Assembly: GCA_965250285.1 (NCBI GenBank)
Contig: OZ252299.1
Coordinates: 3,840,001-3,904,000, forward strand
DNA length: 64,000 nt
Source: Myxococcota bacterium
GTDB taxonomy: Bacteria > Myxococcota_A > UBA9160 > UBA4427
Direction of reading: 5' to 3'
Part shown: piece after piece, positions 3,664-59,903 of the stretch
How positions within the stretch are numbered: the stretch's first letter is position 1
Layout: each line of letters opens with the position of its first letter
The notes under the pieces: generated by a model
Databases searched by the model: none
What the model was told of the DNA's origin: nothing
Seen by the model: the letters and a program-made list of their open reading frames with translations, nothing else
Program-made: the position numbers and the translations under genes

Positions 3664-4278
3664 TCAGCGGGCCTGTGCCCGAAGGAGCACCGAGATGGCG
3701 CGGGCCCAGGCGCGGCGCGTTTGCATCGGGCTGCGCTCGTAGGTGAGCCGAAACTGCTCCCACGACTCGACGGAGGTCAGCGTCGCGATCAGCGCCAAGG
3801 CGTCGTCGCGCTGCGCGGCGGTGAGCGCCGCGAGCTCGGGGCCGAAGTGCGCCCGCGCTTCGTCGACGAGCGCGCGGCGGCCCCGGTCGATCATCTGCGC
3901 GGCACCGGGATCTCGAAGCCCAATGCTGCGCTGCAGCCGAGCCAGCAGGTGCACCTGCTCCCACAGATCGACGCGCGCAGCCGCGAAGCGCTCGGCGCGC
4001 TCATCGAGCGGCCCCGCGCCTGGCTCGGCGACGTCCAGCGGCGGGAAACGCTCCATGACGCGCGCCATCGCGTCGCGTCGCATGACGTCGAGGGTCTCGA
4101 AGTAGCGAAAGAACGTCGCCGTCGAGATGCCCGCGCGCTCGGCCACTTGTTCGGTGGTGGGCGGCAGGTTGCCCTCGAGCACCAGGTCGATGAAGGCGTC
4201 GATCACGCGGGCGCGACGTCGGGTCGATGCCGACGTGCGCTCCCCTTTCGGCGAAGCGTCGCTGGGGCTCGCGGACAT
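3664..4278 (-). CDS. TetR/AcrR family transcriptional regulator
   Basis: HTH PTTEQVAERAGISTATFFRYFETL; ATG at 4278 chosen downstream of palindromic operators. Confidence 0.9.
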   Translation of the reverse strand: MSASPSDASPKGERTSASTRRRARVIDAFIDLVLEGNLPPTTEQVAERAGISTATFFRYFETLDVMRRDAMARVMERFPPLDVAEPGAGPLDERAERFAAARVDLWEQVHLLARLQRSIGLRDPGAAQMIDRGRRALVDEARAHFGPELAALTAAQRDDALALIATLTSVESWEQFRLTYERSPMQTRRAWARAISVLLRAQAR

Positions 4279-4295: not shown

Positions 4296-4351
4296 TGAGA
4301 GCGAAGCTCTCAGCATCGAATGAGAGTTCCACTCTCATCTGGGGTTGTCAA
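4296..4351 (-). promoter_or_regulatory. Tandem TGAGAG-N5-CTCTCA operators overlapping a sigma70-type promoter (TTGACA -35) of the TetR gene
   Basis: Palindromes at 4296-4312 and 4321-4337; TTGACA on minus strand at 4351-4346. Confidence 0.8.
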
Positions 4352-30851: not shown

Positions 30852-31000
30852 ACGAGACGACGCGCGCCCCGTCAACCACCAGCCACAGGCGACCCTCGCA
30901 GGTCGTCTGCTGGCGACGCGCGCCCCTTGCCTGATAGCGTCGAGCTGCGCCGGCCCATCTGGAGCGACACACGACCGTGCCCTCTCTCCCGACTCGATCC

Positions 31001-33319
31001 ATGACCGCCCGAGCCCTCCTCTGGCTCGTCTCGGTGTGTGGACTCGGCGCGCTGCTGCCCTTCGCAGCCGCCGCCGAGGGCCCGCGCGGCGAGGGCGGCT
31101 ACGACCGCGACGAGCCGCGGGTCGCGGCCGCGCTGCTGGTCGATGCCGAAACGGTCGCGCCGGGCGAGAAGGTGCGCGTCGGCGTCCACTTCACGCTCGA
31201 CCCCGACTGGCACATCTACTGGCGCAATGCCGGCGATGCCGGTGCGGCGACGCGGCTCACCTGGGACGTGCCCGGCGCCGAGGTCGGGCCGACGCAGTGG
31301 CCGGCGCCGACGGTCTTCCGCGAGACCGAAGTGCTCCTCGTGACGTACGGCTACACCGGCGACGTGCTGCTCGCGAGCGACGCCGTCTTCGCGCCCGACG
31401 CGTTTGGCCCCACCCGCATCGACGTCGATGCCGAATTCGTCGTGTGCAAGATCGACTGCATCCCCGGCCGAATCGCGCTCTCCCGCGAGATCATCGTCGC
31501 GGCCCCCGGCCAGCCGCCTAGCGAAGAGGTGCGCCGCCCCTTCGATGAAGCGGCGCTGCGAGTGCCCAACCGCCCCGACGCGCTCGGCCTCTTCGTCGCG
31601 GCTCGGCTCGGCCCGAGCGCCGTTCGGCCGGGCGACAACTTCGAGCTCGCCCTCGACGTCGTGTCCTGCGTCGACGCCGACACCGATGACTGCGTGCCGT
31701 GGCGACTCGACGCGACGCTCAACGACGAAGCGTTCGTGCCCGAGGCGCTGCCGACCGTCCGGCTCGCGGCCCGGGGGCTCGGCCGACCGCCGACCGCCGA
31801 CCCGGGCTTCTCGCTCATCGTCGAAGGGCACGCGTTCGATGATCCCGGCGTCGAGACCCAACCGCTGCGCGGCGTCATCCCGATCGTCCGCGGCACCGAT
31901 CGCACCTTCGTCGAGATCGACGTGGCGCTGCCGCGGGCGCCCGCCGAGGCCGCAATCACGCCGGCCGCCCTCGGTGGCTTCGAGGTCGTTGCCGCGCTCG
32001 AAGAGCCCCGGGCCGCATCCCACGACGCGCGCGACGCGGCCGGCGCAACCGACCCGGCCACCCCTTCCCTCGCGCTCGCCCTGCTCTTCGCGCTGATCGG
32101 CGGACTCGTGCTGAACCTCATGCCGTGCGTTCTGCCCGTGCTCGCGATCAAGGTCTTCGGTGTCGCCGAGATCGCCCACGCCGATCGCGCCACGTTGGTC
32201 CGGCACGGTGTCGCCTACCTCGCCGGCGTCCTCGCTTCGATGGCCGCGCTGGCCGGCGTCGTCGTCGCGCTGCGCGCCGCCGGCACCTCGGTCGGGTGGG
32301 GCTTCCAGTTCCAGGAGCCGGTCTTTCTCGCGGCGATCTGCACCCTGCTCGTCGTCTTCGCGATGAACCTCTTCGGCGTGTTCGAGGTGACCTGGCAGCC
32401 TTCGGGGCCGGCCAGCGCGCCAGCGGTCGGGCCACCGACGACGCAGCGAAGCTTCTTCGAGGGCACCCTCGCCGTGGTCCTCGCCACGCCGTGTACGGCC
32501 CCGTTTCTCGGTACGGCCGTCGGCTTCGCCTTCGCCGGCTCGACGACGGTGATCTTCGCGATCTTCCTCGCGATCGGCTTCGGTCTGGCTGCGCCGTATG
32601 TGCTCATCACCTTCGTCCCGGGGCTCGCGCGATTCGTGCCGCGACCGGGCGCCTGGATGCTGCGCGTGCGCAGCGTGCTCGGCTTCACGCTCCTCGCCGC
32701 GGCCGCATGGCTGCTCTGGGTCATGGGCCGGGCCGTCGGTGTCGATGGTCAGGGGCTGCTGCTCGCCTACCTCGTCGGGGTGGCCTTCCTCGTCTGGGTC
32801 TTCGGCACGCTCCAGGCGGGACCACGCACCACCGCAGCCCGCGTCGCCGCTGCCTCGATCGCCGCCTTCGTCGTCGCGGCCCTCGCGTTGTTGCCGCTCG
32901 ACCCCGCTCCGGTCGAAGCGGTCGAGGTCGCCGACGCGAGCGCAGGCGGCCCAGCAGGCACCTGGTCGCGCTGGGCGCCGACGGCCATCGATCGCGAGCG
33001 CGCGGCGGGGCGCCCGGTCTTCGTCGAGTTCACGGCCGACTGGTGCATCACGTGCAAGGTCAACGAGTCGGTGGTCCTGTCGACCGACGCCGTGCGTCAA
33101 GAGCTGACGCGACTCGACTTTGCCACGTTCAAGGCCGACTGGACGCTCCGCGACGAAGAGATCGGCCGAGCGCTCGCCGAATGGGGTCGTGCGGGTGTTC
33201 CGATGTACCTCGTCTATCCGGCCGACACCGCGCAGCGTCCGATGCTGCTGCCCGAGCTGCTCACCGTCGAGACCACCGTCGAGGCCCTGCGCGCCGCCGG
33301 ACAGGGCGAAGGGGTCTGA
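31001..33319 (+). CDS. dsbD: Thiol:disulfide interchange protein DsbD (ScsB-like, alpha-beta-gamma domains)
   Basis: Signal peptide; WHIYWRNAGD and CKIDC (alpha); LMPCVLP and ATPCTAP (TM beta); FTADWCITC thioredoxin (gamma). Confidence 0.92.
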   Translation: MTARALLWLVSVCGLGALLPFAAAAEGPRGEGGYDRDEPRVAAALLVDAETVAPGEKVRVGVHFTLDPDWHIYWRNAGDAGAATRLTWDVPGAEVGPTQWPAPTVFRETEVLLVTYGYTGDVLLASDAVFAPDAFGPTRIDVDAEFVVCKIDCIPGRIALSREIIVAAPGQPPSEEVRRPFDEAALRVPNRPDALGLFVAARLGPSAVRPGDNFELALDVVSCVDADTDDCVPWRLDATLNDEAFVPEALPTVRLAARGLGRPPTADPGFSLIVEGHAFDDPGVETQPLRGVIPIVRGTDRTFVEIDVALPRAPAEAAITPAALGGFEVVAALEEPRAASHDARDAAGATDPATPSLALALLFALIGGLVLNLMPCVLPVLAIKVFGVAEIAHADRATLVRHGVAYLAGVLASMAALAGVVVALRAAGTSVGWGFQFQEPVFLAAICTLLVVFAMNLFGVFEVTWQPSGPASAPAVGPPTTQRSFFEGTLAVVLATPCTAPFLGTAVGFAFAGSTTVIFAIFLAIGFGLAAPYVLITFVPGLARFVPRPGAWMLRVRSVLGFTLLAAAAWLLWVMGRAVGVDGQGLLLAYLVGVAFLVWVFGTLQAGPRTTAARVAAASIAAFVVAALALLPLDPAPVEAVEVADASAGGPAGTWSRWAPTAIDRERAAGRPVFVEFTADWCITCKVNESVVLSTDAVRQELTRLDFATFKADWTLRDEEIGRALAEWGRAGVPMYLVYPADTAQRPMLLPELLTVETTVEALRAAGQGEGV

Positions 33320-33321
33320 GC

Positions 33322-33374
33322 TTGCCCCGAACAGTGAGAGCTGTACTCTCACCTACTTGAGAGTCCAACTCTCA
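33322..33374 (+). promoter_or_regulatory. Tandem TGAGAG-N5-CTCTCA operators with candidate promoter (TTGCCC...TACTCT)
   Basis: Palindromes 33335-33351 and 33358-33374 upstream of ATG 33429. Confidence 0.8.
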
Positions 33375-33428
33375 ATCATGGTCGGCACGCTGCGCAGCGG
33401 GTCGCCGGCCGACCGAGGAGGAATCGCG

Positions 33429-34190
33429 ATGAAATCGATGACGCTGGGGACGAAGCTCGGCTTCGGTGCGTTGGCCCTGGCCCTGATCTCGCTCGTCGCG
33501 TGGCAGTACCACATTCGCACGGTGGACATCCCCGAGAACCGGACGCTCTTCGTGATCGCGTTCGTGACCGCCGTCGCGCTCGGCATCGCCGCTTTCGTGA
33601 AGGGCGCGGGCTGGGCGGGGCGAATCGCGGCGGTGTTCGCGATCTTCATCGGGACGCTCTTGCCGTTCACGATCTCGGTCAGTCGACAGGATCTCGCGCC
33701 CGGCGCGATCTCGGTGGGCGACACCCTGCCGGCCTTCGCATCGGTCGACGACCGAGGCGAGCCCTTCGACTCGGAGCGCTTGAGAGGCCACCCCGTCCTC
33801 ATCAAGTTCTTTCGAGCCCACTGGTGACCCTACTGTGTCGCCGAGTTACGGCGATGGGAAGAGTTGAGGCCCGAGTTCGATCGGCGCGACGTGCAGGTTC
33901 TGACCGTCAGCACCGACCACCCGGAAGAGATTCGTGAAGGCCGAACGCGTCATGGCTTGCAGGCCATCATGCTCTCCGACCCCGAACTCGTGGTGACCGA
34001 TGCATTCGGGCTGCGCAATACGGGCTTCCACTCGGCGCCGCCGAGCGACGACACCGAGGCGTTGCCCGTACCGGCTTCGATTCTCGTCGATGCCGACGGC
34101 ACCGTACTGTGGATGGACATCGCCGAGAACTACCAACGGCGATCGCCCCCCTCGGTCGTCCTCGCGGCACTGCAGCGGTACCTCGACTGA
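33429..34190 (+). CDS. Membrane-anchored peroxiredoxin-like (AhpC/TSA, thioredoxin-fold) selenoprotein; UGA 33825-33827 read as Sec (UxxC)
   Basis: GAGGAG RBS; ORFs 33120-33827 and 33864-34190 are in one frame separated only by TGA; read-through gives VLIKFFRAHW-U-PYCVAEL...VLTVSTD...LSDP...PASILVDADG; SECIS-like hairpin follows. Confidence 0.88.
33828..33858 (+). promoter_or_regulatory. Putative bacterial SECIS element
   Basis: Stem GUCGCCG/CGGCGAU (33837-33843/33849-33855), loop AGUUA starting after a 16-nt spacer from UGA with G at loop position 2. Confidence 0.75.
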
Positions 34191-34250
34191 AGACAGGCGC
34201 GGACGAACACTGACACCGGCGTCTTCCATAGAGCCCCCAGGAGCCCCCCC

Positions 34251-35108
34251 ATGAAGATCGGACTGATCCCCATCAACGTCACCGTCGCCAGCGTCGACGC
34301 CATGGTCGCGCTCGCGCAGAAGGCCGAATCGATCGGCCTCGAGTCGGTCTGGACGTTCGAGCACGCCATCGTGCCCACCGACTACAGCTCGAAGTACCCC
34401 TACAGCGCGGACGGCAAGATGGGGGTCACGCCCGAGACGAACTTCGTCGATCCACTCATCGCGCTGTCGGTCGTCGCCCAGGCCACCGAGACGCTCCGCC
34501 TCGGTACCGGGGTCAACATCCTCCCGCAGACGAACCCGCTGATGCTCGCCAAGCAGGCGGCCAGCCTCGACTTCGTGTCGAAGGGTCGCTTCATGCTCGG
34601 CGTCGGCATCGGTTGGTTGAAAGAAGAGTTCGAAGCCATGGGGACGCCCTTCGAGAAGCGCGGCGCCCGCTTCGACGAGTACATCGAGGCGATGCGCAAG
34701 ATCTGGTCGGGCGACACGGTCGAGCACCAGAGCGAGCACCTCAACTGGACCGGCTTCAAGAGCCATCCGCTGCCGATCCAGAGCCCCTTCCCGGTCGTGA
34801 TCGGCGGTTCGAAGGGCAAGGTCTTCGAGCGCACGGCGCGCTTCGGCAACGGCTGGTTCGCACCGACGGTCAGCGCCGACCAGCTGAAGCCGATGCTCGC
34901 GCCGCTGAGCGAAGCGTGCGCGGCTGTGGGACGCGACCCGAGCGAGATCGAGATCTCGGCGATGTGGGTGCCGGCCATGGGGCTCGACAGCCTGCGCCAA
35001 TACGAAGACCTCGGCGTCTCGCGCCTGATCGTGCCGGGCCAGACGCTCGGCGGCGATCCCATGGCCGGGCTCGACGGCCTCGCCGACGACGTGCTCGCCA
35101 AGCTCTGA
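34251..35108 (+). CDS. LLM-class (probably F420-dependent) oxidoreductase, Rv2161c-like
   Basis: SVWTFEH, DPLIALS, LGTGV, LGVGIGWLKEEF. Confidence 0.92.
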   Translation: MKIGLIPINVTVASVDAMVALAQKAESIGLESVWTFEHAIVPTDYSSKYPYSADGKMGVTPETNFVDPLIALSVVAQATETLRLGTGVNILPQTNPLMLAKQAASLDFVSKGRFMLGVGIGWLKEEFEAMGTPFEKRGARFDEYIEAMRKIWSGDTVEHQSEHLNWTGFKSHPLPIQSPFPVVIGGSKGKVFERTARFGNGWFAPTVSADQLKPMLAPLSEACAAVGRDPSEIEISAMWVPAMGLDSLRQYEDLGVSRLIVPGQTLGGDPMAGLDGLADDVLAKL

Positions 35109-39208: not shown

Positions 39209-40240
39209 TCAGTGGGCGGCGAACAGGGTCTCGCAGCCCGTGCCGTCGAGGGTGCGATCGACGACCGAACGGGCATCGTCGTCGAGGGCGGCGTAGCGTT
39301 CGCGCAGCCAGCGCAGGCACTTCGCCTGGTACACGAACGGATCCTGCACCCACGGCTGGCCATCGATCTCGCACTCGACGCGGAGCGCCCCCGACGAGAC
39401 CGCGGCGGCATTGCCGAGGAGGAAGGGGGCGTAGACGCGACCGATCTCACCGAGCAGCGCGCGAAGGGTCTCGGGCGGCTGGGTGAGGTCGACCCAGTCG
39501 TCCTCGCTCACGTCGAGGCCACTCACGTCTTCGAGGCGCTCGGTCCAGGCGTAGGCGCGGGGCGATACGTCGAGCGCGACGGCGGCAGGCGTCGGATCGG
39601 TGATCACCAGCATCGTCATCTGGCCGTAGCACGCGAAGTCGCCCGCACCGGGCCGCTCGCCGAGCAGATACGGGGTGCTCTGCATGTGAGCGTCGAAGAG
39701 CTCGAGAAAGCGGCGCCAGCTGGCCTCGATGATCGGCGCGGTCACGTCGTTCGACCCGACGACGCCGATGCGCGAGATCTGGCGCTCGGCGATCATCTTC
39801 TCGAACTGATCGCCCTGCTCGCGCGTCATCTGAATCGCCTGGCCGTAGGGCATGTACGCGCTGGCCTTCTTCGTATCGGGTGCGTAGGCCCAGCGGTAGT
39901 GGAACATGCACTTGCTGAGCCACTCGTCGGCGTAGTCTTCGATCAACGCGTCGATGAACGCGAGCGCCGGGTTCGTCGGGCGCAGCCGGCGAGCGCTCGA
40001 GAGCTCATCGAGCCGGTCGAAGATCGGCGTGGTGTCCGACATCGCTTCACCCGGCTCGCCATCCGCCCCGGGCAGCACCAGCCAAGGCAGCAGCGGCAGC
40101 GGACGGTCGGGCAGCGCCGCAGCCTCCTTGCTGCCGACCACGACGAAGCGAAACGGGAGCCGTCGAAAGCGCAACGCCGCGCGCAGCTTGCGCGTGTACG
40201 GCGAGGCGCCGACGCCGACCAGCCGCAGGTCGCCGTTCAC
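39209..40240 (-). CDS. Glutathione S-transferase family protein (extended C-terminus)
   Basis: SPYTRKLRAALRF, DTTPI, EDYADEW, YLLGERPGAGDF. Confidence 0.85.
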   Translation of the reverse strand: MNGDLRLVGVGASPYTRKLRAALRFRRLPFRFVVVGSKEAAALPDRPLPLLPWLVLPGADGEPGEAMSDTTPIFDRLDELSSARRLRPTNPALAFIDALIEDYADEWLSKCMFHYRWAYAPDTKKASAYMPYGQAIQMTREQGDQFEKMIAERQISRIGVVGSNDVTAPIIEASWRRFLELFDAHMQSTPYLLGERPGAGDFACYGQMTMLVITDPTPAAVALDVSPRAYAWTERLEDVSGLDVSEDDWVDLTQPPETLRALLGEIGRVYAPFLLGNAAAVSSGALRVECEIDGQPWVQDPFVYQAKCLRWLRERYAALDDDARSVVDRTLDGTGCETLFAAH

Positions 40241-40352: not shown

Positions 40353-40408
40353 TGAGAGTTCGACTCTCAATCCCGGATGAGAGTCCCACTCTCACCGAGC
40401 GCCGTCAA
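40353..40408 (-). promoter_or_regulatory. Tandem TGAGAG-N5-CTCTCA operators with TTGACG -35 on minus strand
   Basis: Palindromes 40353-40369 and 40378-40394; TTGACG at 40408-40403. Confidence 0.8.
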
Positions 40409-58958: not shown

Positions 58959-59903
58959 ATGAGTGGCCCCCTCTCACTCCCCGATCGCGTGTCGGCTGGC
59001 GCGGTGATCTCGGGGCGCGATCGCGAATCGGTGCTGAGCCACGTTCGTCGGATCGAAGACGCGGGCTTCGACTCGGCCTGGGTCGGCGATCACGTCTCGT
59101 TCTTCATCCCGATCGTCGAGTCGCTCACGTTGCTCAGCTTCGCGGCGGCCGTGAGCGAGCGCATTCGACTCTGCACGGGGATCTACCTGCTGCCACTCAG
59201 GCCGCCCGCCGTGACGGCCAAGGTCACATCGACCCTCGATGTGTTGTCGGGCGGGCGACTGACGCTCGGCGTCGGGGTCGGGGGCGAGTTTCCGCCCGAG
59301 TTCGAGGCGGTCGGTGTCCCGGTCGGCGAGCGTGGGCCCCGAACCGACGAGACGATCGAGATCCTGCGTCGGCTCTGGAGCGAAGACGGCGTCGAGCACC
59401 ATGGGCCTCATTTCGACTTCGGCCCCGTCAGCCTCGACCCGAAGCCCCTGCAGCCCGGCGGCCCGCCGATCATCGTCGGCGGACGTCGGGGGCCGACTTT
59501 TCGCCGCGCGGGACAGCTCGGCGATGGGTACATCTCGCACATGTGCGCGCCCGATCAGTATGCGGCCAACATGAAGCTGATCGGCGATCACGCGCTGGCG
59601 GCCGGACGCGAAGGAGCGGCTTTCGAGTCGTGCGCCTTCCTCTTCACCGTGCTCGACGACGACTACGACAAAGCACATGCGAAGGCCGCGTCGATGCTGA
59701 ACACGATCTATCAGCGCGACTTCACAGAGGCGGCGAAGAAGTACTGCCTGCTCGGGCGTCCCGAAGATTGCCTCGAGCAGATGCAGGCCTTCGCGCGCAG
59801 CGGGGCGCGCCACTTCGTCTTCTCGCTGCTCTCCGACCAGGACGCGTTCTTCGAGTCGTATGAATCGGTGATCGGGCCGGGCCTCTCGCAGATCGACGTC
59901 TGA
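58959..59903 (+). CDS. LLM-class flavin/F420-dependent oxidoreductase
   Basis: GFDSAWVGDH, LGVGVGGEFPPEF, PPIIVGG. Confidence 0.9.
   Translation: MSGPLSLPDRVSAGAVISGRDRESVLSHVRRIEDAGFDSAWVGDHVSFFIPIVESLTLLSFAAAVSERIRLCTGIYLLPLRPPAVTAKVTSTLDVLSGGRLTLGVGVGGEFPPEFEAVGVPVGERGPRTDETIEILRRLWSEDGVEHHGPHFDFGPVSLDPKPLQPGGPPIIVGGRRGPTFRRAGQLGDGYISHMCAPDQYAANMKLIGDHALAAGREGAAFESCAFLFTVLDDDYDKAHAKAASMLNTIYQRDFTEAAKKYCLLGRPEDCLEQMQAFARSGARHFVFSLLSDQDAFFESYESVIGPGLSQIDV

Follow-up and report, generated by a model that had tools for sequence, protein, structure and literature searches.

The 64,000-nucleotide stretch of DNA analysed here (the window) contains a reading frame that is interrupted by a TGA codon in the middle of a redox motif. 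Is this TGA a stop or a codon for selenocysteine (Sec), and, if the latter, what does the enzyme do and on which side of the membrane? The frame has 253 codons, from ATG 33429 to the terminal TGA at 34188-34190, and one internal TGA at 33825-33827. Translation through this codon gave the motif KFFRAHW-U-PYCVAELRR around codon 133, and reading 33429-34190 bore out the claim of an earlier note on this DNA that a single frame carries one TGA at codon 133 in HW-U-PYC. The features of the gene are as follows.

33429 to 34190, plus strand: predicted gene for a three-helix-anchored Prx-like UxxC selenoprotein of 253 amino acids (from the frame, PF00578 at 83.1 bits against a cut-off of 26, and AlphaFold)
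33825 to 33827, plus strand: predicted Sec codon, in-frame TGA at codon 133, the U of UxxC with Cys136 after it (from the frame and the homologue column)
33415 to 33421, plus strand: ribosome-binding site GAGGAGG, 7 nt 5′ of ATG 33429
33837 to 33855, plus strand: bSECIS hairpin with a 7-bp stem (33837-33843/33849-33855) and the loop AGUUA (33844-33848)

A scan of 33200-34300 for a sigma-70 promoter and a terminator found neither.

A rival reading takes the TGA as a real stop, with a pseudogene, an error of sequencing or two distinct genes behind it. Standard gene calling breaks the gene into two ORFs, which speaks for this reading, as does a generic SECIS rule that is often satisfied by chance (see below). 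The same splitting had been predicted for annotation pipelines, and it does occur: some homologues in GenBank end before the motif, at FRAHW, and are entered as hypothetical proteins. However, the assembled contigs that cover codon 133 (three runs of one study, one of which is possibly the source of this assembly) show no letter other than TGA, and the downstream half of the gene, which might have decayed, is conserved in homologues and folds in the AlphaFold model.

The Sec machinery was searched for in the source genome (6.25 Mb, one contig, 68.6% GC), and all of selA, selB, selC and selD are present. selA was found with E 7.8e-130, selB with 317 bits (cut-off 242), selD with 281 bits (cut-off 125), and tRNA-Sec (selC) with 62.6 bits (cut-off 47) and a TCA anticodon. 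The selD gene (L010, contig C1 of this genome, G000, 5312234-5313154, minus strand) has Cys at its site (CGGCAAK) and lies in a 781-codon open frame, which is consistent with an Ndh-SelD fusion as in PMC2398784.

The homologue column agrees with this machinery. When genome and metagenome loci were pooled and duplicates removed, 87 distinct loci remained, with TGA in 82 and a Cys codon (TGT or TGC) in five; the TGA persists across these 82 even where identity falls to about 30%. In 61 genomes (this one and 60 relatives), there were 41 matches at E ≤ 1e-35, distributed over 34 genomes, and all 41 contain one TGA. selB was found in 33 of these 34 genomes, and the 34th has selA. Furthermore, neither selA nor selB was matched in two Cys-form genomes (86% and 96% complete), while each of three TGA-form genomes tested alongside them had both genes. 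Among 97 database proteins, the column holds Cys in 86 and Trp in one, while eight proteins end at FRAHW and two begin after the motif; a few of these protein entries may be recoded forms. In the tree, the protein with Trp (P0062) falls together with a TGA locus, and its Trp is probably a TGA read as Trp by a gene caller. At another locus, L158 (G023 C8:201332-204048), the family gene adjoins selB in convergent orientation.

The hairpin behind the TGA (GUCGCCG/AGUUA/CGGCGAU) has the sequence, the 16-nt distance from UGA to loop and the G at loop position 2 that had been claimed for it. A published bSECIS rule asks for a spacer of 16-37, a loop of 3-9, G in the first two places, a stem of 4-16 bp and MFE ≤ -7.5 (PMC13188914). 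With our own version of the rule, the TGA at 33825 passed with a spacer of 16, a loop of 5, 8 pairs and -9.9 kcal/mol, and so did, among the long ORFs of this genome, 410 of the 2,350 that end in TGA and 214 of the 1,030 that end in TAG or TAA. The stability of the 60-nt fold gave z = -0.79, and we rejected hairpin stability as stand-alone evidence. Taken singly, the hairpin does not exceed chance, and the weight rests on conservation and covariation across homologues.

In 35 distinct 36-mers starting with TGA, the 7-bp stem was paired in 98.4% of 245 cells, compared with 24-71% at slid control positions, and three of the seven stem pairs showed double-sided changes. Shuffles reached the value of the real stem in 0 of 500 cases on four of five measures and in 24 of 500 on the fifth; since the 36-mers are related sequences, these fractions are not probabilities. 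The substitutions that keep the stem alter the protein (Gly for Ala together with a matching change in an Arg codon, Gln or Leu for Arg, and Ser for Val), while Val and Ala codons within the stem do not vary between close rows. The earlier note had also pointed to the TTA Leu codon in the loop. Its rarity is real (3,380 long GC3-biased ORFs of this genome have 138,891 Leu codons, of which 82 are TTA), but TTA itself was rejected as a special signal, as homologues alternate between TTA (37/82) and TTG (45/82) and the constraint is UUR. The loop Leu codon is TTR in all 82 homologues, whereas only 269 of the 2,097 Leu codons outside the loop in these genes are. In the five Cys loci, 6, 4, 4, 2 and 1 of the seven stem pairs survive; the stem mostly decays in Cys forms, although one of them (L094) still retains 6/7. 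A conserved lower SECIS stem or a second hairpin was considered and dropped, as the folds differ among homologues.

Because the genome has the sel genes, the homologue column holds TGA or Cys, the hairpin covaries and it mostly decays in Cys forms, UGA codon 133 is almost certainly decoded as Sec. The selenoprotein reading of the earlier note is supported as a whole by the machinery, the column, the invariant TGA in the contigs and the intact downstream half. A real stop is extremely improbable against the TGA kept at so many loci, the covarying hairpin and the Cys found in genomes without sel genes.

In addition, the genome looks rich in selenoproteins. Six more Prx-like candidates with an in-frame TGA lie on contig C1 of G000, at 2490359, 4424435 and 4544202 on the plus strand and at 2346508, 1311786 and 3754820 on the minus strand. 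Three of them have the motif FYRGFW-U-PPC, with a common AGUUG loop at 16 nt, two have RSAVW-U-PPC and one has FLRHFG-U-LFC. Other candidates with an in-frame TGA and a hairpin are at 121328, 3706377, 3939510 and 1068662 (plus) and at 2261940 and 3020228 (minus) of the same contig; their motifs are PV/PL-U-PxC, which we take to be PrdB-like, CxxU in a short SelW-like ORF, and D-U-GSC (UGSC-like). In the metagenome loci L070, L071 and L073, a second Prx-like selenoprotein gene (FYRSAVW-U-PPC) lies downstream on the opposite strand and converges on the family gene.

The selenoprotein had been called hidden, and this word does not hold. Full-length members of the same subfamily were placed in the 'Prx-like 1' block of GOS Dataset S1 in 2008; for example, JCVI_READ_1929089 has a three-helix N-terminus and FFRAHWUPYCV, and WUPYCV has 11 occurrences in the part of the dataset covered (PMC2398784). 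A 2026 review lists 'Prx-like thiol:disulfide oxidoreductase' UxxC proteins in its Table 1 (PMC13188914). Prx-like 1 shares the PF00578 domain and UxxC with the protein encoded here. Because full-length relatives already stand under that name, this selenoprotein is of a known kind and not a new family. However, Prx-like 1 is a broad mix, and we did not find the anchor, orientation, scsB link or operator discussed below described there. The words 'membrane', 'transmembrane' and 'periplasm' have zero occurrences in the GOS main text (PMC2398784), and Prx-like, Myxococc, membrane and peroxiredoxin have zero occurrences in the main text of the BSepDB paper. In the literature searched, of which coverage was incomplete, no description of the anchor, the orientation flip, the scsB link or the operator was found.

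What kind of enzyme is it? The following feature covers the catalytic part.

33702 to 34187, plus strand: thioredoxin/peroxiredoxin-fold catalytic domain with Pro215 at the cis-Pro/Arg position (from Pfam, the ResA alignment, Foldseek and a 157-row alignment)

AlphaFold (58 rows, pLDDT 93.6, pTM 0.87) gave three N-terminal helices and a thioredoxin-type domain. The Pfam domains are AhpC-TSA (PF00578) and Redoxin. The NCBIfam profile search with the selenoprotein returned 14 weak matches (ResA 37.5 of 170 and TlpA 23.5 of 230 bits), and no model came near its cut-off. In Foldseek, BCP/PrxQ, Tpx and AhpE ranked above ResA, with TM-scores (by target) of 0.8-0.86; the match to BCP/PrxQ had E 1e-11, and ResA was close behind. 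The best sequence match among solved structures (PDB) is ResA (E 1.4e-12), and Pro215 aligns with the proline of ResA. In a protein atlas, the Cys form P0011 led to generic AhpC/TSA-Redoxin clusters only. The family motif is R129-A/G-H-W-U/C133-P-Y-C136, and the site W-U/C-P-Y/F-C together with Pro215 occurs in 156 of 157 family rows.

Peroxiredoxins have a catalytic Arg at the position that holds Pro215 here. A peroxiredoxin proper has the motif PxxxT/SxxC(U) (PMC13188914). The label peroxiredoxin-like was right for the fold but not for the catalysis: a true peroxiredoxin was rejected, with PxxxT/SxxC absent and Pro at the Arg position in the 156 rows. We infer a CxxC-type thiol-disulfide oxidoreductase on a Prx-like fold, because the peroxiredoxin motif is absent and Pro occupies the Arg position. 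Compared with BCP/PrxQ and the TxxU Sec-peroxiredoxins, the fold is common, but Sec stands at the T position and not at the peroxidatic one, and both PxxxT/SxxC(U) and the catalytic Arg are absent. TlpA, ResA and CcmG share with the selenoprotein a WCxxC-type site, a proline at the cis-Pro position and an N-terminal anchor. They differ in having Cys at the first position, and the NCBIfam cut-offs of ResA and TlpA are far from reached. Their anchor is one helix, compared with three here. The GHWCPYC type corresponds, we presume, to cd02970 (PRX_like2). Caulobacter PrxL (cd02969) resembles the selenoprotein in its Prx-like fold without the catalytic residues and in a gene near scsB, and its function is undefined (PMC3322552). 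PrxL carries a signal sequence and contains only Cys, whereas the three helices here argue against a simple signal peptide.

A true selenoprotein that mainly reduces peroxides or lipid hydroperoxides directly at the membrane, with the selenol offsetting the missing residues and ScsB perhaps recycling it, is a possibility that we consider unlikely. It has in its favour the AhpC-TSA domain, the top Foldseek matches and the finding that Caulobacter ScsB feeds an envelope peroxide pathway (PMC3322552). Against it stand the missing motif with Pro in place of Arg, the many Cys forms with the same site (the 86 database proteins above), and PrxL, which also lacks the conserved residues and, in the experiments covered there, showed no peroxidase activity (PMC3322552).

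On which side of the membrane would this domain lie? Two more features are needed here.

33444 to 33677, plus strand: three predicted TM helices, residues 6-30, 39-57 and 62-83 (from AlphaFold and hydropathy; predicted N-in, C-out from the Lys/Arg at the N-terminus and in loop 2)
Contig C1 of G000, 2320388 to 2321116, minus strand: paralogue of the selenoprotein

The three N-terminal hydrophobic helices described earlier are supported by AlphaFold at these residues and by a mean hydropathy of about 2 in each of the three across the family. A clade of 31 rows that includes the selenoprotein was recovered from the catalytic domain alone; a quick 106-row tree gave it SH-aLRT 99, and a second tree of 78 rows gave SH-aLRT 98.7/UFBoot 100. 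The second tree left out the long-branch rows L173, L100 and L164, used a shortened search and was read as an unrooted split; a label of 40.9/60 seen on this clade had been shifted by re-rooting and was discarded for the split value of 98.7/100.

To describe charge, we took as bias the Lys and Arg of the N-terminus and loop 2 minus those of loop 1, with region limits chosen after the alignment was seen. In the clade, the bias was positive in 28 rows, zero in two and negative in one. In the 126 non-clade rows, it was positive in none, zero in one and negative in 125. The sole negative clade row (L063) has an uncertain start, with an upstream frame that carries more Arg/Lys, and was counted as a miss. 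The selenoprotein itself has a modest +2, which is also the clade mode, and positive values range up to +4. N-terminal Lys and Arg averaged 1.87 in the clade versus 0.01-0.11 in the others, and those of loop 2 averaged 1.97 versus 0.12-0.27. The net charge of loop 1 was 0.0 versus about +3 (Lys/Arg 3.7-3.9 in the others), and the net charge after helix 3 was -0.9 versus +1.1. All four junctions thus shift their charge together in exactly this clade. With the positive-inside rule as guide (PMC3962082), the clade is predicted to be N-in/C-out with a periplasmic catalytic domain, and the other 126 rows N-out/C-in with a cytoplasmic one. The paralogue in this genome, 47% identical over the whole protein, also has a TGA and is of the cytoplasm-facing charge type. 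L041 (G006 C10:669-2534) has two tandem family genes, each with TGA, whose predicted orientations are opposite. The catalytic domain of TlpA/ResA lies outside the cytoplasm, and the charge bias predicts the same for the selenoprotein.

A true selenoprotein could still face the cytoplasm like the rest of the family, being recycled by thioredoxin or by glutathione with the GST-family protein described below, or serving as donor to the ScsB membrane domain in place of a soluble thioredoxin. The bias of the non-clade rows, the catalytic domains that stay alike between paralogues, and GST-family genes that neighbour both groups and carry the palindrome here agree with this reading, and the direction of electron flow is not readable from gene order. 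We regard it as rather unlikely, as the four junctions changed charge together in this clade and nowhere else. Insertion in both orientations (dual topology), serving both membrane sides, would accord with the small clade bias of 0 to +4, and dual-topology proteins have bias values near it (PMC3962082). However, the net charge difference is positive in 31/31 clade rows, the examples treated there are small proteins of 3-4 helices (PMC3962082), and a soluble domain of 160 residues would make dual topology less likely; we give it very little probability. For a reversed bias between homologues, there are the precedents YdgE/YdgF and YdgQ/YdgL, pairs that form antiparallel transporter heterodimers (PMC3962082). 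Here a soluble catalytic domain would be relocated, and one side shows a smaller bias.

The preferred periplasm-facing reading leads to the gene upstream.

30977 to 33319, plus strand: DsbD/ScsB-type membrane electron transporter with a putative start (DsbD_N, DsbD_TM and Thioredoxin_7), the likely reductant

This transporter has all three Cys pairs, one for each domain (alpha, beta, gamma), and its DsbD_N at 58-164 is separated by some 200 residues from the membrane domain at 367. The ScsB class has a long alpha domain of two subdomains (COG4233); the three pairs and an apparently long alpha region make the transporter look like ScsB, which in Caulobacter reduces neighbouring thioredoxin-fold envelope proteins, TlpA and PrxL (PMC3322552). 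An scsB-like gene adjoins 11 of 29 clade loci versus none of 44 others (300 nt or more of upstream sequence was present in 41 of the 44), but the flip may have arisen a single time, and likewise the scsB link, so that these are not independent observations. The other 18 of the 29 clade loci have no adjacent scsB, and 30 of 36 family genomes contain ScsB homologues in any case. A second DsbD/ScsB-like gene of this genome (L025, G000 C1:5221896-5224638, minus strand), 48% identical, is directly followed by a TlpA-like WCPPC gene, in the same order of transporter and thioredoxin. By analogy with Caulobacter, the adjacent transporter likely recharges the selenoenzyme. The luciferase-like and DUF3604 genes downstream do not form a fixed operon with the selenoprotein gene; this idea was rejected, as the adjacency is not conserved. 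G000 has large paralogue sets of luciferase-like monooxygenases, of DUF3604 (8 matches) and of the GST type described next (9 matches).

Between the scsB-like gene and the selenoprotein gene lies a pair of palindromes, which recurs at two other places in the window.

33335 to 33351, no strand: palindrome TGAGAG-N5-CTCTCA, copy 1, putative operator
33358 to 33374, no strand: palindrome TGAGAG-N5-CTCTCA, copy 2, putative operator
3664 to 4278, minus strand: TetR-like regulator (PF00440 at 22.8 bits, just under the cut-off of 24), which likely binds the operator
4296 to 4312 and 4321 to 4337: palindrome pair 5′ of the TetR-like gene
39209 to 40240, minus strand: GST-family gene, likely of the same regulon
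40353 to 40369 and 40378 to 40394: palindrome pair 5′ of the GST-family gene

The 6.25-Mb genome has six exact copies, all within the window, as these three tandem pairs; a weaker site lies at window position 58960, and no palindrome was found before the scsB-like gene in this genome. The exact palindrome occurs in 13 of 61 genomes, mostly before a tetR homologue, an scsB-like gene or a selenoprotein gene, and before 5 of 29 clade genes versus 0 of 44 others, although the relatives are kin, so that these palindrome and neighbour counts are not independent. A few exact sites have none of these three genes beside them, and in G025 the palindrome stands before the tetR, scsB-like and selenoprotein genes on three separate contigs. 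A GST-family gene, the product of which is presumably cytoplasmic, is a neighbour at 2 of the 29 clade loci and at 5 of the 44 others. As judged from the sequences, the TetR-like protein likely binds TGAGAG-N5-CTCTCA and governs a putative regulon that includes the GST-family gene.

The proposed mechanism is as follows. By established bacterial biology, SelB would insert Sec133 at the UGA. The topology would be N-in, C-out by the positive-inside rule, the reverse of most of the family. Sec133 would attack an oxidised thiol substrate as nucleophile and Cys136 would resolve the intermediate, giving a selenenyl-sulfide, with Pro215 as the probable thioredoxin-type proline. Electrons from the cytoplasm may pass through ScsB to the selenoenzyme on the periplasmic face, as gene order and the shared palindrome suggest. 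TlpA is likewise reduced by ScsB (PMC3322552). Our best guess for the substrate is oxidised envelope thiols. The shared palindrome also suggests that a TetR-like repressor would couple the selenoenzyme with the GST-family gene. For the whole chain, a recoded Sec in a periplasm-facing three-helix thiol-disulfide reductase that is recharged by its ScsB-type neighbour, the chances are about even. The evolutionary claim, that one clade inverted its three-helix anchor, moved the Sec site from cytoplasm to periplasm and gained a dedicated ScsB supply under a TetR operator, is more tentative, with a chance a little short of even.

The Sec call mends a common annotation error, in which entries end before the active site, and adds no family; the orientation switch matters more. 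If it is true, a whole redox domain changes compartment, unlike the small helical transporter subunits treated in PMC3962082. Furthermore, the two paralogues of this genome, one per orientation, would be a natural pair for the study of topology inversion and redox-partner rewiring. Most predicted Prx-like selenoproteins are without a functional lead, and this one would be a candidate for an envelope selenoenzyme whose electron source and regulator can be named.
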